A stretch of DNA of 64,000 nucleotides from an uncultured Bacteroidales bacterium (GTDB lineage: Bacteria; Bacteroidota; Bacteroidia; Bacteroidales; UBA12077). Under the pieces are notes generated by a model, which was not told the origin of the DNA, did no database searches, and was given only the letters and a program-made list of their open reading frames with translations. Below are positions 1,246 through 64,000 of this stretch, in pieces. The first letter of the stretch is position 1; each line of letters opens with the position of its first letter. Where the stretch lies: positions 13,153 through 77,152 of the forward strand of contig CAZPMA010000001.1 in NCBI GenBank assembly GCA_964587535.1, given 5' to 3'. A program made the translations under genes and the position numbers.

Positions 1246-3846
1246 GTGGAAAAAAAGTGGCGTAGTTATATATTTCATCCTTTATTTATTGGTTTCATAA
1301 TAAGTTCTTTGGTAATTTATTTTTTTGTAAAGAGCTTCCCTCAATTTAGTACCGAAATAAAAGAGAGTTACCTATTAAAAAATAATGGACAAATATATTT
1401 TTATGACCTGGATAGTGATGGCACAAGTGAGCAGTTGCATTATTATAAATACGATAAAGTATTTGATCCAACTTTATATATTTATGATTCAAATAATAAC
1501 CTTAAATATTTAACTAATTTCAATGAACCACCGATTAATAATTTTGCATTGTTTGTAGGTGATTTTAACAATGATAACATAAAGGAGATATTTAATTTTA
1601 CGAATAAATCCGATTCAATTTTTTTATATAAAATAAATATTGCAAGCGAAAGAGAAACCAGCCAGACCCGCACTTTTATTGCAGTTGTTGATGATTATAA
1701 TATTGAAACTAAGATTAATCCAATAGGCCTTTTTGACCTGAATAATGATGGATCATCAGAATTCTTATTTTATATCGATGCATCATATCCTTTAAACCCA
1801 AGAAAAATATTTTCTTTTGATATTAAAAAGAATAATTTAATTACTTCGCCTAACCTTCAAGCTTCTATTCTTAAAGGTGTTATTGTTAAAGATATTGATA
1901 ATGATGGTTCCTTCGAAATTATTGTGCCAAATATGTCAGTGCAGGTGCCGGGTAATGGTAATATATCCCAGATTATTGTCCTAGATAGTAATTTAGATTA
2001 CAAATTTGAACCTGTTAATTTTAATGGTGAGAAATCAAAAGTAACTTGTGGCCTTATTAAAAAAGATGATCAGTGGAATATTGCATTGTTAAAGAGTGAA
2101 TATTTAAATAATAAACCATCAAACACGATGTTTGTCATTGATGATTCCGGGGAAAAGATATGCGAAAAAGAAATACAAAGTAAAAGTAACTTGAGTATTA
2201 TTGACTGGTTTGAAAATGGACAGGAATTATTGGCTTTATCTGGCAATAAATTAGTTGTAATCGATAATAATGGTGAAGTATCAAGCGAAATTAACTTGGC
2301 AAAGAATAAAAATGTGGAGTATGTAACAAATGTTAAATTGCTGAATGATAAGTTAGATACCTATATTTTTAAAAATGATTCAGACTTAATACTGTTACCT
2401 TACAATCGAGGGAAAGCAATAAAGATTGAAAATCTTGGAAAAGAATTATCGAATTTAACCGTTAAGATGGAACAGAATGAAAATGTTTTATCTATACAAT
2501 ATGCTAACCGATTACATCAAATAGCTTTTAATGAAAATGAAGCTTTTGTGCATAGTTTCTTATTTCAGATTCTCGTGTTTATTGTAATTATTCTTACCGT
2601 ATATTTTATTTCTAAAATTAGATCTTTACGATTAAAGCTTAGAGAAAAGAATGTTAAAAAAACCTTTTATTATAAATTATTAGAGAATAACCTTATTGAT
2701 AACAATAATATATCGAAAAAAGATAAAGATAAGGATGATGCAATAATTGATCGTTTACGAAATAATAAGCAAATAAATAATAGTAAAATTCATAACGATC
2801 AAGTTAAAACAGATGGTAATTTAGGATTGTTTGATATTCTTGAAAAGGTAATCGATTTTTATAAAGAAGACATAAAAATAGAATTACACGTATCTCCGAA
2901 TAAAGAAAATATCAATTTATTGCCACTGGTTGATCTGCATGTTACTAAAACATGTAAGCAGATAATTGATTTTTGTGCAGATAAGGAGAAAATCAATCGG
3001 TTAAAAGTAGAGTTTAATTTTAATGAAAAATTTCTGAATATCACTTTTGAAATAGAAGCTGGTGCAAATTTATTTAATCAATTAAAAAAGAAGATTGAGC
3101 AAAATACTTTAATAGAAAGATATAATTGGGATATATCCTATTCAAAAGAGAACGATAAAATTAATAAAATTGGCATTACGGTTCCGTTAAGCGATTCTGA
3201 TGATAATACTATAAAAGTGATTATTGCAGAAGATCATGATGTGTCGTTGTTTGGACTGATCTCACTTTTTAAAGCTCAGAATGAAATTGAGGTTATTGGT
3301 ACCGCAAAAAATGGACTGGAAGTTTTAAAGATTCTGAATCAAAATACAGCTGATGTAGTTATAACTGACATTTCGATGCCCGGAATGGATGGAATAGAAT
3401 TATCTGAGAAGCTAAAAAATGAATTTCCTGGCATTAAAGTAATTGTCTTTACAATGTATATGGAAAATTGGTTTATAGAACAGTTAGTAAAAAACGGTGT
3501 GGTTGGTTTTGTTAGTAAGAATTCAAAAATCCAGGAATTAATCGGGGCAGTAAAGCATGCTTATAAAGGAATAAATTATTATTGCCCACAGTTTAAAATG
3601 AAATTTGGTATTAATACAATCAATCAAAATACAACTGATATTAAGTTAGATTCTCTTTCTAAAAAAGAAATACAAGTGCTTAAACTTTTTGCTAAAAACT
3701 TACAAAAAGAACAAATCGCAAAAGAATTGGACATTCCTCTTCAATCATTAAATGATATGATTGCTAATATATTACTAAAAATAAATGCAGGGAATGAAGA
3801 TGAGATTATCAGAATAGCTAAACACCAAAAATTTATTTCAGAATAA
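1246..3846 (+). CDS. Membrane-anchored signalling protein: FG-GAP/VCBS-like extracytoplasmic repeats, second TM, degenerate HATPase-like segment, REC receiver, LuxR/GerE HTH
   Basis: GTG start. N-terminal TM. Motifs DLDSDGTSE, DFNNDNIKE, DLNNDGSSE, DIDNDGSFE. TM FLFQILVFIVIILTVYFI. REC (IKVIIAEDHD...VVITDISMPGMDG...IVFTMY). LuxR HTH (LSKKEIQVLKLFAKNLQKEQIAKEL). Confidence 0.8.
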   Translation: MEKKWRSYIFHPLFIGFIISSLVIYFFVKSFPQFSTEIKESYLLKNNGQIYFYDLDSDGTSEQLHYYKYDKVFDPTLYIYDSNNNLKYLTNFNEPPINNFALFVGDFNNDNIKEIFNFTNKSDSIFLYKINIASERETSQTRTFIAVVDDYNIETKINPIGLFDLNNDGSSEFLFYIDASYPLNPRKIFSFDIKKNNLITSPNLQASILKGVIVKDIDNDGSFEIIVPNMSVQVPGNGNISQIIVLDSNLDYKFEPVNFNGEKSKVTCGLIKKDDQWNIALLKSEYLNNKPSNTMFVIDDSGEKICEKEIQSKSNLSIIDWFENGQELLALSGNKLVVIDNNGEVSSEINLAKNKNVEYVTNVKLLNDKLDTYIFKNDSDLILLPYNRGKAIKIENLGKELSNLTVKMEQNENVLSIQYANRLHQIAFNENEAFVHSFLFQILVFIVIILTVYFISKIRSLRLKLREKNVKKTFYYKLLENNLIDNNNISKKDKDKDDAIIDRLRNNKQINNSKIHNDQVKTDGNLGLFDILEKVIDFYKEDIKIELHVSPNKENINLLPLVDLHVTKTCKQIIDFCADKEKINRLKVEFNFNEKFLNITFEIEAGANLFNQLKKKIEQNTLIERYNWDISYSKENDKINKIGITVPLSDSDDNTIKVIIAEDHDVSLFGLISLFKAQNEIEVIGTAKNGLEVLKILNQNTADVVITDISMPGMDGIELSEKLKNEFPGIKVIVFTMYMENWFIEQLVKNGVVGFVSKNSKIQELIGAVKHAYKGINYYCPQFKMKFGINTINQNTTDIKLDSLSKKEIQVLKLFAKNLQKEQIAKELDIPLQSLNDMIANILLKINAGNEDEIIRIAKHQKFISE

Positions 3847-6846: not shown

Positions 6847-7241
6847 GGGGTTGTTTTGGTTTTGACGGTAAGGTAAACTGGAATGTAAGCATGTCGAGCT
6901 TTGTGTTTTGGCTCGTTAATCTCAAGGCTCAAAACAATAAACGGCGAAAATAATTACGCACTTGCTGCTTAATATTGCTAGGCAAATTAAGCTTAATTCT
7001 GACGCTAGGTCGTCAGGACAGGTTGTCTCACAAAAGCCTTTCTCGGCGGCGTTTGGTTCTGAGGCATCGTAAAAGTTGAGATAGCTTAGTTAGCGCTTCG
7101 ATAACTAAGTGAAAATTTAGAAGCTAAGGTTTAGTTCGGCTGCTTTTTGCCAGGCTATTCACGAAAAACAATAAAAAGATAAGCATGTAGAAAACATTTG
7201 GGTTTCTTATTCGGACGCGGGTTCGAGTCCCGCCAGCTCCA
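6847..7241 (+). ncRNA. ssrA: tmRNA (ssrA), tag reading frame GENNYALAA*
   Basis: 5' GGGGUUG pairs with 3' CAGCUCC. T-arm gcgggttcgagtcccgc. Tag ORF ggc gaa aat aat tac gca ctt gct gct taa at 6943-6972. CCA is not encoded. Confidence 0.92.
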
Positions 7242-7242
7242 C

Positions 7243-7641
7243 AAATCAACAAATTTTAATTTGGTAGATTTGTGAGAGTCCCGACAAAATCGTCGGGACT
7301 CCACAAAAAAAACGACTGAACCACTTCCTTCAAGAAGTGGTATTTTTCTTTAAGAAGAATTAAAATATACTTAGTAAACTTTATGCTTCCGCCTTATCCC
7401 GGCAATGTAAGTTTCTATGCGTTTAAGAAATCAACAAATTTTAATTTGGTAGATTTGTGAGAGTCCCGACAAAATCGTCGGGACTCCACAAAAAAAACGA
7501 CTGAACCACTTCCTTCAAGAAGTGGTATTTTTCTTTAAGAAGAATTAAAATATACTTAGTAAACTTTATGCTTCCGCCTTATCCCGGCAATGTAAGTTTC
7601 TATGCGTTTAAGAAATCAACAAATTTTAATTTGGTAGATTT
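7243..7641 (+). repeat. Perfect tandem duplication: 185-bp unit, two full copies (7243-7427, 7428-7612) plus a 29-bp third start (7613-7641)
   Basis: The two copies are identical by eye. Each unit carries hairpin gagtcccgac/gtcgggactc and a terminator-like hairpin ccacttc/gaagtgg followed by a T-run. Confidence 0.9.
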
Positions 7642-12947: not shown

Positions 12948-13635
12948 AAGAGTTATTGTAAAAATCTAAAGCAATTTTAGAATAAGAATATTGATTTGTT
13001 CCCTTATGGATTCCATAAGGGAATATTTTCATTTTAGACCATTTTGTAATTTCACTTTTAGATGCCAAAAAATCAGAGTTGTATGCTGCCGAGTAAAATG
13101 TTAATCTCTCTGTAGTGTTTATCCACTTTTCGTTTTTAAATCGGATAGATATGTATTGATAAAAACAATTTAGGTAACACAACTGCCATTTAAGTTCTTT
13201 TAGGCGCTGAATTCTTTCTTTGCGAATCTCTTTTTTATCAGTCTTGCTATACTCTACTAGTGCTTCAAATCTAGTTTTTAGGTGGTTGTTATTTAATATC
13301 TCACACTCCAACTTTTCGATAAAGGAAGGTTTCATTTGAAAATATCCTATTGAAAAATCAGCACCATCCGTTCCATAATTAACATATAACAATTCAAGGG
13401 TAGCAGTTTCAATAATATCTTTATATGCAGAATATTTTAACAGCTCAGGAAAAATGATTGCAATTTTTTCTTTTATGAGATCTTTGTCACTTCCCAGTTC
13501 TTCTATAATTAGTTCATTATGATTGTTAATAAACCCTATTGCATCTTCATACGAATCTGAAAATAAATTCTCCTTACGTTCTTCGAATGAGCAAATAAAA
13601 ATTATTATAAATAATATTGATATGAGTGATTTCAT
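12925..13635 (-). CDS. Hypothetical secreted protein
   Basis: N-terminal signal-like MKSLISILFIIIFICS. No family recognised. Confidence 0.45.
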   Translation of the reverse strand: MKSLISILFIIIFICSFEERKENLFSDSYEDAIGFINNHNELIIEELGSDKDLIKEKIAIIFPELLKYSAYKDIIETATLELLYVNYGTDGADFSIGYFQMKPSFIEKLECEILNNNHLKTRFEALVEYSKTDKKEIRKERIQRLKELKWQLCYLNCFYQYISIRFKNEKWINTTERLTFYSAAYNSDFLASKSEITKWSKMKIFPYGIHKGTNQYSYSKIALDFYNNSSNSINIF

Positions 13636-53106: not shown

Positions 53107-53840
53107 TGGAGAATAAGTTTGAACAAATAGAAAGTTACCTGGCAGGAGAGATGTCCATTAAAGAACAATTAGCTTTTGAAGAGCTGCTTCGAAAAGATAG
53201 GGAACTTATGCTCGAATTCAAACTTAGAAAAAGCATAAATAATGCTATTAATGAAAATGATGTGATGGAATTAAGAGAATCTTTATCTAATATTACCTCA
53301 ATTCCTGTTAAAAAGAAACCTATAATATTAAACCCATATATAATTACAACAGCTGCTGCCATAATTATATTTGCCATAGTTTCAAGTCTATATTTAAATA
53401 ATCGAAGTTATAATACAAATGACTTATTTAATCAATATTATAAGAAATATCCATCGATTATAAATTCTAGATCAATTGCAGAATCAGAAAAGGAGCAACT
53501 TTTTATTGATGTGTTTAACTATTATGATGATAATAATTATGAAAATGTTATCTTAACTATTAAAGAGCTTTTAAAAACCAATGATAACAATAGTTTATTG
53601 TTGTTTTATTTGTCGGTTAGTTTAATGGAGCAAAATGAACTAAAACAATCTGAACACTATTTAAAGCAATTGGTCAACAATAAAAACCATGTATTTTGGG
53701 AACAGTCACATTGGTATTTAGCATTAAATCTTATAAAACAGAATGATAAGTTTGAAGCAATAAGAATCTTAAAAGTTATTGTTGACGAAGACATGTCTAA
53801 AAGAAAGGAAGCAGAGAAATTAATTAAGATCTTGGAATAA
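53106..53840 (+). CDS. Anti-sigma-like single-pass membrane protein with a periplasmic TPR domain
   Basis: ATGA overlap with the sigma stop. N-terminal about 75-aa cytoplasmic helix domain, TM PYIITTAAAIIIFAIVSSLYL, and a TPR-like C-terminus. Confidence 0.65.
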   Translation: MENKFEQIESYLAGEMSIKEQLAFEELLRKDRELMLEFKLRKSINNAINENDVMELRESLSNITSIPVKKKPIILNPYIITTAAAIIIFAIVSSLYLNNRSYNTNDLFNQYYKKYPSIINSRSIAESEKEQLFIDVFNYYDDNNYENVILTIKELLKTNDNNSLLLFYLSVSLMEQNELKQSEHYLKQLVNNKNHVFWEQSHWYLALNLIKQNDKFEAIRILKVIVDEDMSKRKEAEKLIKILE

Positions 53841-56628
53841 ATTTCTTTATGAATATTGTTATTATAATTGATAACAATATAATACCCCCTAACAGAACAT
53901 ATATAAATTTATTTGAGAATAGGGCATCCTTATTACCAATTATAACATATCCAGACCAAAAATAAGGATGTGCATGCAATTGGTCAGAATTTTTAATAAA
54001 CTCAAGTTTAGACTTTTGTAATGATTTTGACTTGTTAAATCCTTTGATAAGGTTTCTATAATATTCAGCCATTAGGTTAACTCCCGATTTATCTTCTACC
54101 GACCATAAAGTCATAACAAGTGAAGGACAGCCAGCGTAAAAGAATCCTCTTGCCAGGCTAATAACTCCTTCGCCTTTATGCAATTTCCCGCTTCCGCTAT
54201 TACATGAACTTAATACCGCCATACGGCTGTTCAGCTTTAAGTTATATAATTCATAAGTATTTAAAAAATCATCTTCAAGGGAATCGGCAGTCTGCGAAAA
54301 TGCCATTTTAGAATACATCGGATTTTCATCATCCATTATGGTATGCATTGCTAAATGAAGAATATCGTAATTAGCTGCAACTTCTTTAAACCTTTTTTCA
54401 CTTGCTTTACTACCAATATATGTATTTCCTTTTGTTAACTCTGAAATTGCAATTGCTTCTTCCTTAATTCCTTTTAGTGGAAATAACTTTTCTCTGTATT
54501 GTTGTCGGATCGAAATAAAGTTACTATCCATTGTTTCAACAGGTTCATAGCTTGGTGCAAAAGCAGCTAAACTTTTTACCTTTTTTCTTTTATGATGTTT
54601 CTTATCAATTAAAAACCTAGCTGAATATGAATATGATATTGTATTGGTTTTAATTAAATATGGTAAATCCGTATAATTTAGTTTATCATATTTTTTAATA
54701 TCAGAAATAAGTGTTTCAAAAGGCAAATAAGCAAGTTCTCCATCTGGTATAATCGTAATGTGTTTTCTTTTTAGATGATGGTTAATTGGTTTAATGAGAA
54801 TGTTGTAAACATAATTAGATTTTTCTTGAAATAAATACAAATCATTTAATCCATGATACGAGAAATTGTTTTGGGAAAGTGATTTTAATAATAAATCAAG
54901 ATTAGAATAAAATGTGGTATCTATATTACTCTTATATAGATAAATATTATATTTTGAAATGATAAAAGAATAGATGGAACTATCATTAATGGAAAAATCA
55001 ACTAATACATCATTGAACTTAAGTGATTTCTGTAATTCTTTTAATTTTGTCTCTGAATTTGAGTATTTTAATGAGTAATAATCGTTAAAGTTATTTTCAA
55101 GGTAATTTATTAATTCATCGTGCTTTTGTTTTTTTTCAAACAGATATTTGTTCCAATAGGATAATTTATTTTCATCTGGAGTTTTTTTCTTATTTTCTTC
55201 ATAAATAAGTTCTTCGTAGTTCCAAATACTTTTTTCAAGTTCTTTTTCCAGATTTATTAGAGAGTCTGGTATTCCGCCAATATTTAATGCATAATTGTTT
55301 TTTATTGATTCAGTTAATACAGCAGATTTACTCGATTCACAATAATTAAAAGCTTTTTCAAGATATTTTTGCTCCTTAGTAATTTCATATAAACTATAAC
55401 TGGCATTTAAAGCCTTTGAAAAAGTTTCATTTTCATTATCAGCTAAAATAAGTTTACTTTCTTCACTAATATATCCTGATCTTATTTTATTAATTGCATC
55501 AATAGCCAGGTCATAGGTTTGTATACTTAAATTATATAAATCAATATTCTTATTTTTTGAAGCAATTTCTGTCAGCGTAATTGCTTTGTTTTTTATGGCA
55601 TTTAAATAATGTGTTTTAGAAAGGACATTATTTATATCGGGGTTTGTTTTAATATCATTATTCTCAAAATTTGGTGAAATTGCAATTAAAGATTTTTGAA
55701 AGTAGAACAGTGCACTATCTAGCATTTTATTTCTAAGAAAATGTTTTCCAAAATCATTATAGGCACCTGCAAGATAAGGGTGTTTCTCACCAAAGTTCAA
55801 TTTATAAATATTAATAGCAGATTCAAAATAGTCATAAGTATTCTCATTTTTATTTTGCTGTGATAGAAATACTGCATAATTTAAAAAAGTACCTGCACTT
55901 TTAATATTATTTGTTCCAAACTCGTTAACAGCATTTTTAATTGCTTCTCTATAATGCATGTCTGCTAATTTATAGTTTCTTAAGTTATTATAGCAAATGG
56001 CAAGATTTCCTAATGTTGTATATTTACTATTTGGATTTAAAATAATGCTCTTTTTATAGTGTTGTATAGCAGTTGAATAGTCAGATGTGTTTTTATAAAT
56101 ATTTCCTAAGTTATTATATGCTATTGAAATATATTTTTTGTTTTTTATAGTATCACGGTTATATATATTATAAGCCATAAGCAGGTAGTCTTTTGACTTA
56201 GAGTAATCTTTTTGTTTACTGTAAATATTAGCCTTATTTGCATATACATATGCAGTGAGTATTTCATTTCTTTTATTTAAATAAATGGTTTCTGCTTTAT
56301 TATAACAATCAATTGCTTCTGAATATTTTCCATTTATTTTATAGATAATTCCTAGACTTTGATAGGCGTTAGCTAAAGCAATAGAGTCGATGTGGTTTAA
56401 GTTTTCATAAAGTTTAACTGCAAATTGACTGTAAAAAAGAGCACTATCAATAATCCCAGTTTTACCAAAATCCATTCCCTTCTGATAATATAATTCAGCT
56501 AATTTATGATCTTTAATATCATTCCTTTCATTAGCTGCAGTATAAAAAACAGATATAAATAAAATTGTTAAGTAAGTAAGTACATTTTTAAAAAACATAA
56601 TTGTTATTTTGGTAACGTTTTTATACAT
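53824..56628 (-). CDS. TPR-repeat CHAT-domain (caspase-like) protein with an N-terminal signal/anchor and a C-terminal TM helix
   Basis: Many TPRs in the N-terminal 400 aa. CHAT His/Cys dyad contexts ILHLAMHT and AVLSSCNSGSG. C-terminal FIYVLLGGIILLSIIITIFI. Confidence 0.85.
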   Translation of the reverse strand: MYKNVTKITIMFFKNVLTYLTILFISVFYTAANERNDIKDHKLAELYYQKGMDFGKTGIIDSALFYSQFAVKLYENLNHIDSIALANAYQSLGIIYKINGKYSEAIDCYNKAETIYLNKRNEILTAYVYANKANIYSKQKDYSKSKDYLLMAYNIYNRDTIKNKKYISIAYNNLGNIYKNTSDYSTAIQHYKKSIILNPNSKYTTLGNLAICYNNLRNYKLADMHYREAIKNAVNEFGTNNIKSAGTFLNYAVFLSQQNKNENTYDYFESAINIYKLNFGEKHPYLAGAYNDFGKHFLRNKMLDSALFYFQKSLIAISPNFENNDIKTNPDINNVLSKTHYLNAIKNKAITLTEIASKNKNIDLYNLSIQTYDLAIDAINKIRSGYISEESKLILADNENETFSKALNASYSLYEITKEQKYLEKAFNYCESSKSAVLTESIKNNYALNIGGIPDSLINLEKELEKSIWNYEELIYEENKKKTPDENKLSYWNKYLFEKKQKHDELINYLENNFNDYYSLKYSNSETKLKELQKSLKFNDVLVDFSINDSSIYSFIISKYNIYLYKSNIDTTFYSNLDLLLKSLSQNNFSYHGLNDLYLFQEKSNYVYNILIKPINHHLKRKHITIIPDGELAYLPFETLISDIKKYDKLNYTDLPYLIKTNTISYSYSARFLIDKKHHKRKKVKSLAAFAPSYEPVETMDSNFISIRQQYREKLFPLKGIKEEAIAISELTKGNTYIGSKASEKRFKEVAANYDILHLAMHTIMDDENPMYSKMAFSQTADSLEDDFLNTYELYNLKLNSRMAVLSSCNSGSGKLHKGEGVISLARGFFYAGCPSLVMTLWSVEDKSGVNLMAEYYRNLIKGFNKSKSLQKSKLEFIKNSDQLHAHPYFWSGYVIIGNKDALFSNKFIYVLLGGIILLSIIITIFIKKFIPRS

Positions 56629-56806: not shown

Positions 56807-56977
56807 ATGAAAACGCTTAAAGGCATATTTGAAAATAAGACATCAAATAAATCGATGAATACATTTACAGAAACGTTAGATATTAAAAGTATGTTGTTGA
56901 TAAAAGGAGGAGATGGAGATGATGATGATAAAGACTCATGGCCTCCAGCAAGTGATCCTTCAAATACAAGTAACTAG
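56807..56977 (+). CDS. Unannotated 56-aa peptide with a double-glycine leader (bacteriocin/pheromone-type precursor)
   Basis: MKTLKGIFENKTSNKSMNTFTETLDIKSMLLIKGG|DGDDDDKDSWPPASDPSNTSN. Hydrophobic residues sit at -4, -7 and -12 relative to GG. It has its own strong terminator, and a C39 exporter lies in the same cluster. Confidence 0.65.
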   Translation: MKTLKGIFENKTSNKSMNTFTETLDIKSMLLIKGGDGDDDDKDSWPPASDPSNTSN

Positions 56978-57015: not shown

Positions 57016-57050
57016 TGATCAACTCAAAGCCCTTTGGGTTGGTCATTTTT
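57016..57050 (+). terminator. Intrinsic terminator after the GG-leader peptide gene
   Basis: 13-bp stem (tgatcaactcaaa/tttgggttggtca, two G-U pairs), loop gccc, then TTTTT. Confidence 0.8.
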
Positions 57051-57828: not shown

Positions 57829-58572
57829 ATGAGACAGAGTATTAGGCCACCAAAAACGTTAAAAATGAATGATAATGCAATTGAAGTCGAAAAGATTTCA
57901 TTTTTATCACACATTTCTCATGGAATAAGAACACCGCTAAATGCAATTATGGGATTTTCTAAACTTCTAAATTTTAAAAATAATAGTCTTAGCAAGCAAA
58001 AAAGGTATATCAGGGAAATTCTTAAAGGAAGTAATTTGTTATTGCAATTTGTTGATAATGTGGTTGACCTTAGTCTGTTAGAAAATAACAAATATGCTTT
58101 AAACATTAAAAAGTTCAATGTTAATCAATTAATATGGGATTTTATTGAGTACTTCTACGATAAAAAGAATGAAGAAAAGATTTCTGATCTTAACCTTATG
58201 TTAGTTTGGGATGATGAAGTTAAGGACCTTGAGATGCTATCAGATTCATTTTTAGTAAAAAAATGCTTACAGTTACTTTTTAATATTATAACTACAAGAT
58301 ATTCAGAGAAAAATTTCGAATTAGGATATTCAATCTATAATGAGAATATGTTAAAAATTTTTATGCGACCATCAAACAAAAACCTGGAGAATGTTCAAAT
58401 TGAAAAGAACTTCTTTTTGTATGATGTGGATACAAATAATTCGTTTGAGATGTTTAACTATCAGGTTCTTTGTAGAAGCATTAACCTTTTAAATGGAGAT
58501 TTAAATTTGTTTTCAGAAGACAATGAGTATTGGTTTGCAATACCCATCAATTTAAACTATAAAATAAATTAA
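57829..58572 (+). CDS. Sensorless HisKA-domain protein with a degenerate ATPase domain
   Basis: H-box FLSHISHGIRTPLNAIMGFSKLL lies about 25 aa from the N-terminus. No TM segment. No recognisable G1 (DxGxG) or G2 (GxGLG) box downstream. Confidence 0.7.
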   Translation: MRQSIRPPKTLKMNDNAIEVEKISFLSHISHGIRTPLNAIMGFSKLLNFKNNSLSKQKRYIREILKGSNLLLQFVDNVVDLSLLENNKYALNIKKFNVNQLIWDFIEYFYDKKNEEKISDLNLMLVWDDEVKDLEMLSDSFLVKKCLQLLFNIITTRYSEKNFELGYSIYNENMLKIFMRPSNKNLENVQIEKNFFLYDVDTNNSFEMFNYQVLCRSINLLNGDLNLFSEDNEYWFAIPINLNYKIN

Positions 58573-58573
58573 T

Positions 58574-58927
58574 ATGAGAGATTTTAATATATGTATACCG
58601 TCAACCGAAGGTAAAGAAGTGTTGAACTGCAATGAAATAATGTATGCAGAAGCAGAACATGATTATTCAAGAATCGTTTTTAAAGACGAAGGAGTAATTG
58701 AAGTATTGTTAACAATAACTGAATTGGAATACTTTTTATCGAAAAGGGGATTTTTCCGATTTAATAATACGACACTGGTTAATTTAAGATATGTTCAGGT
58801 AATATTTCCTTTAGATGCATCGATAGTTATACTGGAAAATGGTGAAGAGATTTCTGTTAGTAAGGAAAGAAGAGAAGATTTGTTTGAAGGTTTAAAAGAA
58901 GTTTTTGAATTACAAGAAGCGGTTTAA
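58574..58927 (+). CDS. Stand-alone LytTR DNA-binding domain protein (1 of 3)
   Basis: 117 aa. Contains ...IMYAEAEHDYSRIVF...LEYFLSKRGFFRFNNTTLVNLRYV. No receiver domain. Confidence 0.75.
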   Translation: MRDFNICIPSTEGKEVLNCNEIMYAEAEHDYSRIVFKDEGVIEVLLTITELEYFLSKRGFFRFNNTTLVNLRYVQVIFPLDASIVILENGEEISVSKERREDLFEGLKEVFELQEAV

Positions 58928-58981: not shown

Positions 58982-59317
58982 ATGGAATCAGTTAGTTTAA
59001 AACCCACAATTGAAAAAATAACTAACCTCAAAAATGTTATTTATTTTGAATCAATAGGAGAGTTTACAAAAATACATTTCTATAATGGTACTAAGAACTT
59101 AGTTGATGAAGATATAAGTTATATTGAAAGTTTACTTCCTAAAAATAAGTTCTTTAAAATTCACGATCTGTTTATTATCAATCTTGATTACCTAAAACTG
59201 ATTAAGGGGCAAGCAAATAAAAATGCCAGGTTACACCATAATCTGGAAATTGCAATTGATCCGAATAGGTACAATGAGCTAATCGTGTTTATGAAAGAAG
59301 ATTATGTGGTGTGGTAA
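58982..59317 (+). CDS. Stand-alone LytTR DNA-binding domain protein (2 of 3)
   Basis: 111 aa. Contains VIYFESIGEFTKIHF...IESLLPKNKFFKIHDLFIINLDYL. Confidence 0.8.
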   Translation: MESVSLKPTIEKITNLKNVIYFESIGEFTKIHFYNGTKNLVDEDISYIESLLPKNKFFKIHDLFIINLDYLKLIKGQANKNARLHHNLEIAIDPNRYNELIVFMKEDYVVW

Positions 59318-59364: not shown

Positions 59365-59712
59365 ATGAAAAGAAAAGTAGTTCTATTTGATGATGAAGAA
59401 AATATTGTATTAAAAAAAATCGAAGAAATTGTATATTTTGAATCATTAGGCAAAAAAACAAAAACAATTTGTTGTGAACGTGATGAATACATCATTAAAG
59501 AAAGTTTATCAACAGTGGAAGAAAAATTGCCTGATAGTACATTTTTTAAGATACATAAGTCATTTATTATAAATATTGATTGCATTAAAGGAATCAATCT
59601 GGATAATAATAAGAAGGTACTTCTTAATAATGGGATACAATTAAATGTAGCTCACCGTAAATATCGAGAATTTTTAGAGTTTGTAAGATGTAGGTTTGAA
59701 TTCTGGCAGTAA
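59365..59712 (+). CDS. Stand-alone LytTR DNA-binding domain protein (3 of 3)
   Basis: 115 aa. Contains IVYFESLGKKTKTIC...VEEKLPDSTFFKIHKSFIINIDCI. Confidence 0.8.
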   Translation: MKRKVVLFDDEENIVLKKIEEIVYFESLGKKTKTICCERDEYIIKESLSTVEEKLPDSTFFKIHKSFIINIDCIKGINLDNNKKVLLNNGIQLNVAHRKYREFLEFVRCRFEFWQ

Positions 59713-59798: not shown

Positions 59799-59949
59799 AC
59801 AGAATTGAATTTTTTTATATTTCCTATTTCTAAGTAGTGTTTTATTAAAATAAAATTTAAAACAGTTTTGTTAGTTTTGGTATGTCGAGCTCGAAGGCGT
59901 AAACCGAAAAGCCTAAATAGAGTAGGAACAATTTTAATTAATTATAATT

Positions 59950-60141
59950 ATGAAAAAAATAGAAAGTATCAAGAATGATCTATTTAAAAAGTTTGAAGAT
60001 GATCAAATAATTGACATGAGTGAATGCAAAGGAAAAGGAAGATATAGTACAGGATTAGGTTATAGATATGACCAGTTATGTGAAGATTTTTTGCGTACAT
60101 ATGAAAATGGTGATTATCGTTTAGAACTTGAATTTAGATAG
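59950..60141 (+). CDS. 63-aa small protein, candidate RiPP precursor for the downstream ATP-grasp/SPASM enzymes
   Basis: MKKIESIKNDLFKKFEDDQIIDMSECKGKG-RYSTGLGYRYDQLCEDFLRTYENGDYRLELEFR. First gene of the biosynthetic run and followed by a hairpin. Confidence 0.5.
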   Translation: MKKIESIKNDLFKKFEDDQIIDMSECKGKGRYSTGLGYRYDQLCEDFLRTYENGDYRLELEFR

Positions 60142-60157
60142 GTTTTTAAGTTAAACT

Positions 60158-60191
60158 AGAAAGTAATCTTTTTTATATAAGGTTACTTTCT
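60158..60191 (+). terminator. Hairpin after the small peptide gene (possible partial terminator or processing site)
   Basis: 11-bp stem agaaagtaatc/ggttactttct (one G-U pair) with a 12-nt loop and a weak T tract. Confidence 0.45.
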
Positions 60192-60227
60192 TATCCTAAT
60201 ATTTAGAAATAAAAAAGCGCTACTAAA

Positions 60228-61304
60228 ATGAAAAAAAGTTTTTTAACAGCTATTTTATTTTTACTTTTTATTAATATTTATTCGAGAAGTAATATTAATA
60301 AAGATTATAAGAAATATTACGAGTTTATCAATAGTGCTGAGTTACTGATCGTAGAAAATGATTTTTTTAATGCTCATCAGATTTATTCTGAAGCATTTAG
60401 GCAATGGCCAAAGGCTCCTTCGATTGATTATTATAATGCATTACTATGTGCTGTGAAATCAAACATTTATTCTGAAGCATTTAGTTATTTAGAAATATTA
60501 GCAAAAAAGGGTTGGGAATTAGACTATTTTTTAGAAAATCCATACCTTTCCGAGTTAAGAAAAGAAAGCGAATGGGAAAGATTTGTAGAAAATTATCCCA
60601 AATTTAATCAATTATATACAGAATCGTTAGATACTGAGCTGTTAAATGAATTAGCTAATATGTTAATTAAAGATCAATCTCTTGCAAAGTCGAATAGGTA
60701 TAATGAATATTTAAAAACAGTGATAAGTAATGCTGACCGAATTTATGAACTAATCTATAAAAACCAAACCAATAATATACATTTTGGTTCGGTATATTCG
60801 ATCTTGTATAGCCCATTCCCTGTTGTTCTATTGAGACATTATTGTGGGATTTATAATGAAGTACAGAAAGGGTATATTGATGTGTCAAAAATAATTAATG
60901 ATACATTGATGTTAGTAAATTTAGAAGATGCTTTATTAAAAGAAATTGAGAATGGAAATCTCTCACCACTTGTTTATGACTTAGCTGTTACGTATAGTAA
61001 TGATGCAAATCTTTATGGGAATGATTTATTTTTAGAGGTTGATACCGTTATTATTAGAAGAAAGATAGAAATTGAAGAGGAAAAACAAATTAATGAAAAG
61101 CGTTTAAAGATTGGTCAAGAACCAATTAGAGATTACATAAAAAAGTTGGAATTTAAGAGCAAGAAAATTGATGAAAATTTAGAAAAATATTTTTTTAAAT
61201 TCAGGATATCAAGTTCTTATACTTTAATTAAAGGTAATCCAGAAAGATTGAAAAGTTTTATAGAAGACAGATTAAATGAAGGATGGGTAAGAGTTACACC
61301 TTAA
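60228..61304 (+). CDS. Secreted hypothetical protein (TPR-like helical N-terminal part)
   Basis: Signal-like MKKSFLTAILFLLFINIYS. Its 3' end overlaps the ATP-grasp gene start by 22 nt. Confidence 0.6.
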   Translation: MKKSFLTAILFLLFINIYSRSNINKDYKKYYEFINSAELLIVENDFFNAHQIYSEAFRQWPKAPSIDYYNALLCAVKSNIYSEAFSYLEILAKKGWELDYFLENPYLSELRKESEWERFVENYPKFNQLYTESLDTELLNELANMLIKDQSLAKSNRYNEYLKTVISNADRIYELIYKNQTNNIHFGSVYSILYSPFPVVLLRHYCGIYNEVQKGYIDVSKIINDTLMLVNLEDALLKEIENGNLSPLVYDLAVTYSNDANLYGNDLFLEVDTVIIRRKIEIEEEKQINEKRLKIGQEPIRDYIKKLEFKSKKIDENLEKYFFKFRISSSYTLIKGNPERLKSFIEDRLNEGWVRVTP

Positions 61305-62284
61305 TAATTACAAATAAATTTGATTATTGTACAGATAGTATTATAAAATGGTTAAAGTTTTACAATCAAAGTTTTATAATAATTGATACAAATAAAAAAG
61401 TACAAATCACAAAAATTCTTATTAGTAATAAAGAAAAGAGAATTGAGTTATTAATCGATAATAAAAATATCGAATTAAAACAAATTGATTCTGTTGTTTT
61501 TTGGAAAGGAAGAATCCAATTCGACATACCAATAGTTCAATTAGAAAATAAAAAAGGAGATTACAAAAGAGAAGTGGATAGGTTCCTTAAAAGAGAATTA
61601 GAGACTATAACTAATTTAATTTATGATGATTTAAATAAAAAGAAAATTTTTGGTTTATGTATAACTAAGAACCCGAATAAACTTATATTATTAAATCTTG
61701 CAAAAGAAGTCGGATTGAATATTCCCGAAACAACAATTTCTTCAGTATCTAAAATTATTAAAGATAAAGTTAATGATACGGTATCAATTACCAAACCAAT
61801 ACAAGAGATATTTAATTATAGAGAAAGAGATAGAGCTTATGCAACCTTCACACAAATTATAAGTGTCAGAAAGGATCAAAGTTGGGATAAAATAATCTTT
61901 CCTTCTTTAATACAGAATAATATTGAGAAAAAATATGAATTAAGAATATTCTATTTTAATGACGAATTTTATACAATGGCTATATTTTCCCAATCTGATC
62001 AAAAAACTAGTACAGATTTTAGAGATTACAATTATGAAAAGCCCAATAGAATGGTTCCTTTTTTATTACCAAATGACATTAAAAAGAAATTAAGAACTTT
62101 AATAGCTCAAATAGGATATAATTCATGTTCAACTGATATAATTGTTAATAAGGATGGTGATTATATCTTTTTAGAAACTAATCCTTTAGGTCAGTTTGAT
62201 TTGGAATCATTGGTTTGTAATTATAAAATTGAAAAAAAGATTGTTGAATATTTAAAAAATAAAAGCTTGTGTGCAATAATATAG
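61283..62284 (+). CDS. ATP-grasp peptide maturase (MvdC/D-like; grasp-with-spasm type)
   Basis: N-terminus LIITNKFDYCTDSIIKWL. ATP-grasp core NK..LLNLAKEVGLNIPET, ELRIFYF, DFRDYN and FLETNPLGQFD. Confidence 0.8.
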   Translation: MGKSYTLIITNKFDYCTDSIIKWLKFYNQSFIIIDTNKKVQITKILISNKEKRIELLIDNKNIELKQIDSVVFWKGRIQFDIPIVQLENKKGDYKREVDRFLKRELETITNLIYDDLNKKKIFGLCITKNPNKLILLNLAKEVGLNIPETTISSVSKIIKDKVNDTVSITKPIQEIFNYRERDRAYATFTQIISVRKDQSWDKIIFPSLIQNNIEKKYELRIFYFNDEFYTMAIFSQSDQKTSTDFRDYNYEKPNRMVPFLLPNDIKKKLRTLIAQIGYNSCSTDIIVNKDGDYIFLETNPLGQFDLESLVCNYKIEKKIVEYLKNKSLCAII

Positions 62285-62425
62285 GATTACCCATATTATT
62301 CGAATATATTAAAGTAGAGGAAACTGATAAAAAAAGAAATCCTAAGATTAAGTTTATCCAAATGAAAACTGGTGAAACTAGTATTGTAGTTCCCTCTAAT
62401 AAAAGAATATCAAAATTATTTTAAA

Positions 62426-63532
62426 ATGGTTTATAAACTCTTTTCTAATTGTATTCCTGTTAAGGGATATAGAAGAAGTATTATTGTAGATACTCAAAGA
62501 GAGAATTATTATATTATTCCTAATGGATTATATGAAATACTGGTAAATGATACATTTTATTCAATTAAAGATATAAAAAGTAAAATTATGTTTGAATATC
62601 ATGATATTATAGACGAATACTTTGAGTATTTAAAAAATAGGGATTTGATTTTTAGTTGTGATATTAATGAAGTTAAATATTTTCCAAACTTGGATTTATG
62701 TTGGGATGAACCACATACTATTATAAATTCTATTATAGATGTAAATAAATATAGTCAACATAATTTCAAAGAAATATTTATACAACTAGATGAATTATTA
62801 TGTAAACACCTTGAAATAAGGTTTTTTAATTATGTGAAGTCAACTGATTTATATGAAATTATTGCAAAAACAGATAATAAATCTTTTCAAAGTATTGATA
62901 TAATTATGCCCTATAATAAAGAGTTTTCTATATTCGATTTAAATGAGATTTTAGATAAGTTCAAAAGGGTATCAAGCATTGTTATTTATAATTCTCCAAA
63001 TATTATTACCAACAAAGGAATAGAAAATTGTGATAATCACATTTTTTTTATTAAAAATGAGATTTCAGATAAAACAAATTGTGGAGTAATTAAAACATCT
63101 TCATTTTCTATGAACTTAAGTTTTTTCTGTGAGGCACAAGAATATAACACTTGCTTAAATAAAAAGTTGTGTATTGATACAGATGGAAATATAAAGAATT
63201 GTCCAAGTATTAATAAGTCTTATGGGAAAATAGAAAATATAGCTTTAAAAGATATTATAAATAAAAAAAAATTTCAATCTTATTGGCATATATCAAAAGA
63301 TCAAATTGAAGTGTGTAATTTATGCGAGTACAGATATATGTGTAATGATTGCAGAGCTTACGTAAAGGTTAATGACAATTTATACTCTCAACCTTTGAAA
63401 TGTAATTATAATCCATTTATTGCTAAGTGGGAAGGTGAAAAAGGGTACATTCCTATTGAAAATTTTGGATCTTATAATACTCAAGGTAAGTATATAGTTA
63501 ATTTAGAATATATGAAAGAGATAGATATATAA
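62426..63532 (+). CDS. SPASM-domain peptide maturase lacking the radical-SAM CxxxCxxC motif
   Basis: C-terminus C..C(x4)G(x4)C ... CNLCEYRYMCNDC ... KCNYNP, a 7-Cys SPASM pattern. No CxxxCxxC anywhere. The position where it is expected reads VNKYSQHN. Confidence 0.75.
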   Translation: MVYKLFSNCIPVKGYRRSIIVDTQRENYYIIPNGLYEILVNDTFYSIKDIKSKIMFEYHDIIDEYFEYLKNRDLIFSCDINEVKYFPNLDLCWDEPHTIINSIIDVNKYSQHNFKEIFIQLDELLCKHLEIRFFNYVKSTDLYEIIAKTDNKSFQSIDIIMPYNKEFSIFDLNEILDKFKRVSSIVIYNSPNIITNKGIENCDNHIFFIKNEISDKTNCGVIKTSSFSMNLSFFCEAQEYNTCLNKKLCIDTDGNIKNCPSINKSYGKIENIALKDIINKKKFQSYWHISKDQIEVCNLCEYRYMCNDCRAYVKVNDNLYSQPLKCNYNPFIAKWEGEKGYIPIENFGSYNTQGKYIVNLEYMKEIDI

Positions 63533-63577
63533 TAAATTTAAATGGAAAAAATATTAATCTTATCTTTATGACAAAAA

Positions 63578-64000
63578 ATGTCCTTCCCATTTTATAAACA
63601 ACTCGATGCTATGGATTGTGGCCCTTCGTGTTTACGGATGGTTGCAAAACATTATGGTAAAAATTATACCTTACAAACCCTTCGCGATAAAAGCTATATA
63701 ACCCGCGAAGGCGTTTCAATGCTAGGAATTAGCGATGCTGCAGAATCGATAGGTTTTCGAACAATGGGTGTTCGCATTACATTTGATCAACTTATGGAAG
63801 AAGCTCCGTTACCCTGTATCGCGCATTGGAAGCAAAATCATTTTGTTGTTGTTTACGAAATTAAAAAGGCTCGTAAGGGTAACATTATAGTGAAAGTTTC
63901 TGATCCTGCAAGAGGATTAATAAATTTTACCAAAGAAGAATTTCAACAGGGATGGGCCAATACAATCGAAGATGGCGAGAATAAAGGTTTATGCCTTTTG
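63578..64000 (+). CDS. Peptidase-C39-domain ABC exporter, N-terminal fragment (runs off the window)
   Basis: MSFPFYKQLDAMDCGPSCLRMVAKHYGKNYTL... (catalytic Cys context) ...CIAHWKQNHFVVV. Open to base 64000. Confidence 0.85.
   Translation, partial: MSFPFYKQLDAMDCGPSCLRMVAKHYGKNYTLQTLRDKSYITREGVSMLGISDAAESIGFRTMGVRITFDQLMEEAPLPCIAHWKQNHFVVVYEIKKARKGNIIVKVSDPARGLINFTKEEFQQGWANTIEDGENKGLCLL

Follow-up and report, generated by a model that had tools for sequence, protein, structure and literature searches.

A conserved 63-residue peptide gene ahead of a grasp-with-spasm cassette in an uncultured Bacteroidales bacterium: a probable graspetide precursor flanked by two putative RNA elements

The peptide gene and its cassette

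The stretch of DNA analysed here (the window) comprises 64,000 nucleotides of an uncultured Bacteroidales bacterium (assembly GCA_964587535.1, contig CAZPMA010000001.1, forward-strand positions 13,153 to 77,152), and its subject is a small open reading frame (ORF) at 59950..60141 on the + strand, which starts with ATG, ends with TAG, encodes 63 amino acids and is single-copy within the window. A first-pass annotation of the sequence had proposed this ORF as the precursor gene of a peptide made on ribosomes and modified after translation (a RiPP), heading a biosynthetic operon and followed by a hairpin that controls the ratio of precursor to enzyme. The translation given there matches ours exactly, and the 237-bp region placed upstream of the ORF is indeed the gap between the end of the preceding LytTR gene (59712) and the ATG. 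The same annotation had the ORF standing immediately before the ATP-grasp and SPASM genes; these do lie downstream on the same strand, 1.1-2.3 kb away, but the gene of a 358-residue signal-peptide protein (60228..61304) intervenes and they are not adjacent.

The ORF is a real protein-coding gene under purifying selection. The identical 63-residue peptide was called on 5 independent metagenome contigs, and relatives with 75-76% identity were found (below, L numbers denote related loci and P numbers related peptides). Ratios of non-synonymous to synonymous substitution rates (dN/dS, Nei-Gojobori) for the window ORF were 0.11 against L001, 0.20 against L015 and 0.13 against L016, and since all six pairwise values among these four sequences fall between 0.11 and 0.43, the ORF is taken to be coding. 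A HMMER profile search of 1.84 billion representative proteins returned four further small peptides, all of the same design, and nothing else. The contigs of P0004 and P0008 carry the same cassette as the window, and those of P0005 and P0010 end one gene past the peptide.

When conservation of the small ORF upstream of grasp-with-spasm genes was examined, it was present in all 12 distinct loci. The cassette runs in the order peptide, exported protein, ATP-grasp protein (TIGR04192), small LPL protein and SPASM protein (TIGR04193), then usually an exporter of the ATP-binding cassette (ABC) type with a C39 peptidase domain. The order from peptide to SPASM protein is found in L001, L015, L012-L014, L010, L137, L139/140, L141 and L143, and also in L142, except that there the exported protein is not in that position. 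The exported, ATP-grasp, small and SPASM proteins are each homologous between loci, and a peptidase-containing ABC transporter (PCAT) follows the SPASM gene in L001, L010, L013, L014 and L141; the contigs of L011 and L016 end shortly past the peptide gene. L001 comes from a Bacteroidales metagenome-assembled genome, L010 from Bacteroidales UBA5281, L142 from Pedobacter cryoconitis and L143 from Flavobacterium jejuense. A scan of genome contigs with the ATP-grasp protein gave 3 loci only, one of them duplicating L001. More broadly, over 1000 SPASM-protein clusters were found at E <= 1e-20, and grasp-with-spasm clusters are common in Bacteroidota.

Two departures from this arrangement concern the exporter. 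In L137 (10501..14543) no C39 exporter lies past the SPASM gene, where the gene pair RloB/AAA_21 stands instead, along with a group II intron (a reverse transcriptase gene with Rfam intron domains); an adjacent exporter is likewise absent from L139/L140.

Leader and core of the peptide

By alignment, residues 1-29 (MKKIESIKNDLFKKFEDDQIIDMSECKGK; 59950..60036, + strand) form the leader part, which carries the motif ES[IL]K...F.KF...D. In a MAFFT alignment of 8 family peptides the leader residues E5, F12, F15, D22 and G28 are invariant. The first-pass annotation had likened this half of the peptide to the double-glycine (GG) leaders of Bacteroidota and had remarked on the lack of a true GG site, and both statements are borne out: GG, GA and GS dipeptides are absent, and the leader, which ends in KGKG, is placed by alignment as a homologue of bona fide GG leaders. 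G28-K29 falls, with no gap in the alignment, on the GG of P0008 (...LTQLKGG/ETVRTG, the slash standing after the GG), of P0010 (...LQAIKGG/TKEATG) and of the L010 precursor (...FRIVGG/APQSTT). The close relative in L137 has a nearly identical leader that ends in ...IIDMSECKGG/SIYDTG, and the L141 precursor, which matches the window ORF at a tblastn E of 1e-5, has a leader of the same form ending in KGG (MKKLESLNSDTFKKFEKLSFSDLKSIKGG/ACIFTG). In these alignments G28-K29 occupies the positions of the Gly-Gly cleavage motif.

The second glycine is replaced by Lys in the window, P0002, P0003, P0004 and L139, and by Met in P0005, and the residue that follows is G, A or S. Overall, 6 of the 7 distinct close family members possess G-K (or G-M) at the GG site, GG being kept only in L137, and positions -2/-1 of the window peptide thus hold G28-K29 rather than Gly-Gly, Gly-Ala or Gly-Ser. 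Between G-K and G-G loci the C39 domains share 59-71% identity and have the same catalytic residues; their sole consistent difference is DPARG in the G-K loci versus DPAHG or DPGHG in the G-G loci, a comparison of 2 with 3 sequences that is too small to interpret. Cleavage after K29 by the TPR-CHAT protease encoded at 53824..56628 was considered and set aside, given that no CHAT gene lies near the other G-K loci (L139/140).

The predicted core spans residues 30-63 (GRYSTGLGYRYDQLCEDFLRTYENGDYRLELEFR; 60037..60141 with the stop codon, + strand). T34 is invariant in all 8 aligned peptides and always stands in the form [x]-T-G, five residues past the aligned GG, while T50 and the acidic residues at positions 41 and 46 (D or E) are conserved within the close subfamily. 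T34, T50, D41 and D46 are candidate ester-forming residues, and the pattern fits ATP-grasp ester rings, two Thr and two acidic residues being what an ATP-grasp macrocyclase would need for two such rings. A conserved pair made up of Thr/Ser and Asp/Glu is also described for the precursors of branch 5, one of the branches of graspetide ATP-grasp proteins set out by Makarova et al. (2022; PMC8939145). The two Cys, which had been listed earlier among the residues of the C-terminal half, did not survive the comparison, as they are not conserved family-wide: C26 is a leader residue (position -4), and P0005 and P0008 have G or V in place of C44. We have accordingly rejected them as marks of SPASM chemistry. 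With the small ORF in 12 of 12 loci, a leader homologous to GG leaders, and conserved Thr and Asp/Glu residues in the core, the precursor reading of the first-pass annotation has strong comparative support.

A DUF805b motif upstream of the peptide gene

The 5' leader of the peptide gene contains a feature that the first-pass annotation missed, namely a DUF805b RNA motif (Rfam RF02914) at 59894..59928 on the + strand, which scores 51.3 bits against a gathering threshold of 35.6 (E 1e-11) over the full length of the model. Its 4-bp stem (AGGC/GCCU), which is also present in the minimum-free-energy fold, encloses a 12-nt loop and is followed by a conserved tail, AAAUAGAGUAGG; 21 nt separate the end of the motif from the ATG. 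In the alignment of the window with L001 and L002, similarity begins ~65 nt before the ATG, with none further upstream. The motif scores above gathering before the homologous peptide gene in L001, L002, L016 (two copies), L137, L139 and L140, and is found upstream of the peptide family in 6 distinct loci. In L016 the two copies (2645..2677 and 2720..2754) stand 75 nt apart before one peptide gene, the first lacking an ORF at the usual distance.

DUF805b is listed as a candidate cis-regulatory RNA named for DUF805 genes (Rfam; Weinberg et al. 2017), and it is absent from the main text of Weinberg et al. 2017; our literature search on the name gave nothing usable. We scanned metagenome contigs with a strict pattern for the motif, which returned at least 125 instances; the counts that follow hold among the matches listed. 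Motifs of the form GGCGNNNNCNGAAAAGCC..AANAGAGTAGG are widespread in metagenomes (loci L017-L136) and keep a fixed distance of 19-30 nt to the start codon downstream. An ATG-initiated ORF lies 10-45 nt downstream in 117 of 125 instances, with a sharp peak at 21-25 nt (23 nt for the window, counted in this way). Among the 98 distinct ORFs behind the motif are 27 small GG-leader peptides, 6 small Cys-rich and 13 other small products, 22 with signal-peptide-like N-termini, 29 others and 1 DUF805-like product, so that small GG-leader or Cys-rich peptides make up about one third of the genes. Examples of such peptides are one reading MLTEVFTVNEN..CCDVFGYGCSCACNNS and the products of three tandem genes in L024; the remaining genes include those of lipoproteins and proteorhodopsin-like proteins.

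Because the search pattern fixes the other three stem pairs, covariation was assessed for the closing pair only. This position is paired in 77 of 114 instances, versus 46 +/- 4.5 in shuffled and 39 in slid controls, with A-T (42), T-A (16), C-G (10) and G-C (4) all represented, and in the L137 motif an inner pair has gone from C-G to U-A. Given the fixed distance to the start codon and the covariation, an RNA element in the 5' leader is favoured over a promoter.

As for the promoter itself, a candidate Bacteroidota -7 box (TAGTTTTG; consensus TAnnTTTG) was located by pattern match at 59872..59879 on the + strand, 14 nt upstream of DUF805b. It is the only TAnnTTTG on this strand between 59691 and 61315, and a weak candidate, with no well-placed -33 TTTG and a pattern frequency of 0.75 per kb in the window; we infer only from its sequence and place that it might serve as the promoter. 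A sigma-70 promoter scan was uninformative, giving 55 sites versus 54.7 expected, and such a scan is not suited to Bacteroidota.

A stem-loop after the peptide gene

The first-pass annotation had placed a hairpin with an 11-bp stem at 60158-60191, after the stop codon. The hairpin is there (arms 60158-60170 and 60179-60191, + strand, found as an inverted repeat and by folding), but its stem is longer than described, with 13 pairs (12 Watson-Crick and 1 G.U) around an 8-nt loop. The stop codon lies 16 nt away on one side of it, and the next ATG 36 nt away on the other. The hairpin alone has a folding free energy of -13.6 kcal/mol, and the intergenic region folds at -19.1 kcal/mol with z = -3.5, none of 200 shuffles being as stable.

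Each of the 12 distinct loci has a stem-loop past the stop codon of the precursor gene, and the sequences are unrelated, as illustrated by the arms of L001 (AATAGGAAAGATTATA and TATAATCTTTCCTATT), L010 (AAAGGGTAGG and CCTACCCTTT) and L137 (AAATAGCCCACAT and ATGTGGGCTATTT). The stems are uninterrupted and 11-17 bp long in 11 of these loci, and in L142 the stem measures 14 bp, with an additional pair that closes it within the loop. A run of T resembling that of classical terminators follows the stem in L016 and L141, with a weaker run in L015. In the window, L001, L010, L011, L012 and L143 only 16-38 nt separate the end of the stem from the next ATG, and in the window no TAnnTTTG box occurs by pattern match between 59880 and 61315; for these reasons the downstream genes most likely depend on read-through where the gap between stem and ATG is short. 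Conservation of a structure, rather than of its sequence, at the boundary between precursor and enzymes supports in outline, without proving it, the earlier idea about the hairpin. The pattern favours a read-through attenuator or stabiliser, and a role in setting the precursor:enzyme ratio is plausible from the arrangement, although the hairpin may just as well stabilise a 3' end left by processing of the RNA, and in loci with long gaps it may be an efficient terminator.

Proteins encoded downstream

The 358-residue protein encoded directly after the stem-loop (60228..61304, + strand) has an N-terminal signal sequence and fits the description of 'cluster 23' (Makarova et al. 2022). It has no Pfam or NCBIfam match and only 7 sequence relatives among 5.8 billion proteins, with homologues at the same position in L001 (61% identity), L015 (52%) and L013/L014 (25%). 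Its AlphaFold2 model, built on 7 sequences, is poor (predicted local distance difference test score, pLDDT, 62), too poor for a fold search.

It is followed at 61283..62284 (+ strand) by the 333-residue ATP-grasp peptide macrocyclase, which matches TIGR04192 with 254 bits (cut-off 230; E 2e-75) and whose nearest solved structures are MdnC (5IG9, E 1e-19), MdnB (5IG8), AMdnB (7M4S) and CdnC (7MGV, E 5e-15). Next comes a 51-residue ORF (GLPILFEY...SNKRISKLF) at 62269..62424 (+ strand), with an uncertain GTG start and no Pfam or NCBIfam match. Its GLPILF motif and its position upstream of the SPASM gene fit a member of the LPL family, and L001 (67% identity) and L015 (72%) have a homologue of it immediately ahead of their SPASM genes. 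L009, L010 and L013 have small ORFs at the LPL position that share the C-terminal ...FYKPISK and have no BLASTP match to the protein of the window.

The SPASM-domain peptide maturase (62426..63532, + strand, 368 residues) matches TIGR04193 with 312.7 bits (cut-off 175), as well as TIGR04085. Eight Cys at residues 219-326, in its C-terminal half, are invariant in 50 homologues, while in the N-terminal half only C9 and C126 are nearly invariant, and the CxxxCxxC radical S-adenosylmethionine (SAM) motif is absent from the protein in 5 of 5 loci (the window, L001, L009, L010 and L013). The AlphaFold2 model is good (pLDDT 92), and the best PDB folds over its whole length are CteB (5WHY, Foldseek E 4e-6) and SuiB (5V1Q, E 2e-4), with low TM-scores (0.35); a profile search of PDB sequences with the family found no relative. 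In the model the N-terminus, with four strands and then three helices, looks like a RiPP recognition element (RRE). Since the motif is absent while the fold matches RRE-radical SAM-SPASM enzymes, we take the protein for a relative of the radical-SAM maturases, but one unable to bind the radical-SAM cluster in the usual way. The SPASM protein of grasp-with-spasm systems is called a radical SAM enzyme in PMC8939145; that of this locus cannot be a classical one.

Lastly, the last 426 bases of the window (63575..64000, + strand) encode the N-terminal C39 peptidase domain (PF03412, E 1.2e-35) of a PCAT that is cut off by the window end, with the catalytic Cys (DCGP) and His (NHFVV) both present. 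The full-length exporter gene, followed by a match to the AprE beta-barrel family (membrane-fusion or HlyD-like), is seen in L001 and L013.

Regulators and other features of the window

Upstream of the peptide gene lies an unusual regulatory set on the + strand, in which a soluble 247-residue HisKA-domain protein (57829..58572; PF00512, no ATPase domain detected) is followed by three tandem, stand-alone LytTR proteins of ~111-117 residues (58574..58927, 58982..59317 and 59365..59712; PF04397, no receiver domain). We infer from their position that they may be part of the system. In L010, too, the precursor gene has a LytTR gene before it, and a short gene stands there instead in L001 (sub-threshold HTH_11 match) and L137 (no Pfam match). 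No LytTR-type direct repeats were found upstream of the peptide gene in the window. In L010 (4398..4460), between the LytTR gene and the promoter region of the precursor, the direct repeats ACCAGTTATACGAT and ACCACTTATACGAT are spaced by 21 nt and accompanied by a partial third copy; from their sequence they look like LytTR binding sites.

Further upstream, a 56-residue peptide with a textbook Bacteroidota GG leader (MKTLKGIFEN...KSMLLIKGG/DGDDDDKDSWPPASDPSNTSN) is encoded at 56807..56977 (+ strand), with a terminator-like hairpin and a T-run (57028..57040) after the gene, whose neighbours are a 248-residue TPR protein, the HisKA protein and the three LytTR proteins. This peptide may be another substrate for the exporter, or it may signal to the LytTR regulators. 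Divergent from it, on the - strand, is the gene of the 934-residue TPR and CHAT (caspase-like protease) protein (53824..56628), which was not seen near the other loci of the 63-residue peptide family. The region of the window from 52 to 64 kb has ~23-30% G+C. The window is chromosomal, as it contains a tmRNA gene (6847..7244, + strand; Rfam RF00023, 170.7 bits).

Proposed pathway and alternative explanations

Taken together, we consider it likely that the 63-residue ORF encodes the precursor of a grasp-with-spasm graspetide cluster, with the leader, chemistry and expression set out in this paragraph. The coding status and conservation of the gene, the synteny, the leader homology, the pattern of conserved residues, the position of the hairpin and the presence of the DUF805b motif bear on it directly; the chemical steps, the cleavage site and the effects of both RNA elements are proposals built on them. 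The N-terminal ~29 residues would be a double-glycine-type leader whose second Gly has been replaced by Lys (G28-K29), and this leader may dock the peptide to the maturation proteins, the candidates being the ATP-grasp protein, the RRE-like N-terminus of the SPASM protein and the LPL protein. In the core of ~34 residues the ATP-grasp ligase would form side-chain ester rings between T34/T50 and D41/D46, and the SPASM protein, without its radical-SAM motif, might add a further modification or serve as a scaffold. The C39-ABC exporter would then remove the leader at or next to G28-K29-G30 and secrete the product. As for expression, the DUF805b motif in the 5' leader, the ORF and the 3' stem-loop may form a compact module, in which the stem-loop most likely ends or protects most transcripts after the precursor and a fraction reads through, so that precursor mRNA would exceed enzyme mRNA.

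A number of observations weigh against parts of this proposal. Because C39 peptidases prefer small residues at -1 and -2, the predicted PCAT cleavage at G28-K29, where G-K stands instead of G-G/A/S, is uncertain. The Cys residues of the peptide are not conserved across the family, and the DUF805b motif is absent from the more distant loci L010-L015 and L141-L143, from which it follows that the system does not require it. The window hairpin is no textbook intrinsic terminator, which would have a G+C-rich stem with a U-tract directly behind it: its stem has only 3 G-C among its 13 pairs, and the tail that follows (TATCCTAATA) has 4 T in 10 and no U-tract. The consensus terminator scan does not list this hairpin, which might terminate nothing at all. 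Nor is a 3' hairpin special to precursors, since hairpins of at least 9 bp follow 41-44% of the genes behind DUF805b-like motifs (~44% for large genes), versus 7-9% in shuffles. What is said of ring chemistry and of the SPASM protein's role is guesswork, as no characterised grasp-with-spasm product was found in the accessible literature; the system is not covered in a 2023 paper on RiPP mining in Bacteroidales or in a 2025 paper on aminomalonate. Finally, the peptide itself has no match at E <= 0.01 in Pfam or NCBIfam, including PF14406, TIGR04139 and TIGR04149, models that 79 of 87 branch-5 precursor clusters likewise fail (PMC8939145).

The alternatives to be weighed differ in which part of the proposal they replace. 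The stem-loop could be an efficient terminator or 3' stabiliser of a monocistronic precursor transcript, with the biosynthetic genes served by their own promoter and no leaky control of the ratio. The 156-313 nt between precursor and next gene in L139/140, L141 and L015 would leave space for such a promoter, the T-runs of L016, L141 and, more weakly, L015 are like those of complete intrinsic terminators, and the frequency of hairpins behind DUF805b-like motifs suggests self-contained units; set against this are the short distance from stem to ATG in the window and five other loci, the lack of any TAnnTTTG box at 59880-61315 and the missing U-tract of the window hairpin, and we regard this explanation as unlikely. 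We reach a similarly low estimate for the possibility that the block 59894-59928 acts as DNA, as an alternative-sigma promoter or a regulator site, rather than as RNA. Its sequence is very strongly conserved and its stem has only 4 pairs, no positioned TAnnTTTG box lies upstream of 106 de-duplicated DUF805b instances among the matches listed, a promoter close enough to leave a very short 5' leader would likewise account for the fixed 19-30 nt to the ATG, and L016 has two copies 75 nt apart. On the other hand, the closing pair covaries well above both controls, the inner pair of L137 has changed from C-G to U-A, the would-be -35 positions are the most variable ones, and in the window a TAnnTTTG box does lie 14 nt upstream of the motif.

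Far less probable still is that the 63-residue product is no substrate of the ATP-grasp protein, being instead an unmodified exported peptide (a bacteriocin or signal) or an accessory, with the true substrate encoded elsewhere, for instance as the 56-residue peptide at 56807..56977. That ORF, the only other GG-leader-like small ORF in the window, does have the canonical LLIKGG site that the 63-residue peptide lacks, with an Asp/Lys/Ser/Thr-rich tail, its gene adjoins the HisKA and LytTR regulators, and branch-5 loci can hold several unrelated precursors (Makarova et al., PMC8939145). However, its gene stands 3 kb off with five genes between and its own terminator-like hairpin, and in L001, L015, L012-14, L010, L137, L139 and L141-143 the only peptide directly upstream of the enzymes is the counterpart of the 63-residue one, no homologue of the 56-residue peptide being found there; the conserved Thr and Asp/Glu of the 63-residue family also fit ATP-grasp chemistry. 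We thus retain the 63-residue peptide as the probable graspetide precursor.

Although speculative, a wider picture is worth stating, which we hold as a tentative possibility and somewhat doubtful as a whole. DUF805b may not be tied to DUF805 genes, and could be a widespread 5'-leader RNA element of Bacteroidota, placed at a fixed ~20-25 nt from the start codon of exported products and above all of small bacteriocin or RiPP precursors; together with the 3' stem-loop it would form a self-contained, highly expressed precursor-mRNA module before maturation operons. In the present peptide family the Gly-Gly motif would moreover have drifted to Gly-Lys or Gly-Met with the C39 exporter kept. If true, this drift would point to a PCAT of relaxed -1 specificity or to a different leader protease. 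In any case, small leader-peptide genes behind DUF805b provide a testable context for an orphan Rfam motif and could help to find short precursor genes missed by gene callers, and the locus itself is a compact, well-delimited test case, in which the one precursor carries two Thr and two acidic residues that are conserved as well as a natural Gly-Lys variant of the double-glycine site, and the SPASM protein cannot be a classical radical-SAM enzyme.

Comparison with known systems

Stem-loops after the structural gene are known from lantibiotic and other RiPP operons, for example between nisA and nisB, and here too a hairpin stands between precursor and enzyme genes, its placement conserved across loci; the hairpin of the window differs in being AT-rich and lacking a U-tract. 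RF02914 takes its name from DUF805 genes, but the gene behind it here is that of a RiPP precursor; in hairpin and tail it agrees with the model.

In the double-glycine leader and PCAT systems (class II bacteriocins, ComC/ComA, LahT-type) the likeness extends from the leader, which is homologous in the window and has an acidic residue at -8 and hydrophobic ones at -7 and -4, to the C39 domain, which has a complete active site and stands at the operon end; the difference is at position -1, which is Lys in the window, and in a G-x-[G/A/S] sequence in place of G-G. Microviridin and chryseoviridin (MdnA with MdnB and MdnC; CdnC) share with the window a homologous ATP-grasp protein and a precursor built from leader and core, and the chemistry to be expected is likewise that of ester or amide rings between side chains. 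Unlike microviridin, the window peptide has neither a PFFARFL-type leader motif nor a TxKxPSD core, and the window has a single ligase rather than two, with the SPASM, LPL and exported proteins added. The RRE-radical SAM-SPASM maturases CteB (5WHY) and SuiB (5V1Q) provide the best whole-length fold for the SPASM protein, whose N-terminus has an RRE-like beta-beta-beta-alpha-alpha-alpha order and whose SPASM Cys are invariant; the window protein differs from them in lacking CxxxCxxC, and the likeness goes with TM-scores of 0.35 and no relative in the PDB at the sequence level.

The closest counterpart is branch 5 (Makarova et al. 2022, Biol Direct, PMC8939145; TIGR04192/TIGR04193), for which diverse precursors with MKK(L) leaders, a 'cluster 23' signal-peptide protein, an LPL protein before the SPASM protein, a C39-ABC exporter and an HlyD-like protein are described, and whose gene set and order are the same as in the window and its relatives. 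The differences lie in the precursor, which matches no curated precursor model and, in most close members, has G-K (or G-M) at the GG site; in the DUF805b motif and the conserved 3' stem-loop of these loci, unmentioned in PMC8939145; and in the regulators, HisKA and three receiver-less LytTR proteins in the window versus the OmpR-type regulator reported there. The peptide thus represents a sequence family that is new, in a kind of system already described by computation, and it extends that class while leaving current ideas about it in place.

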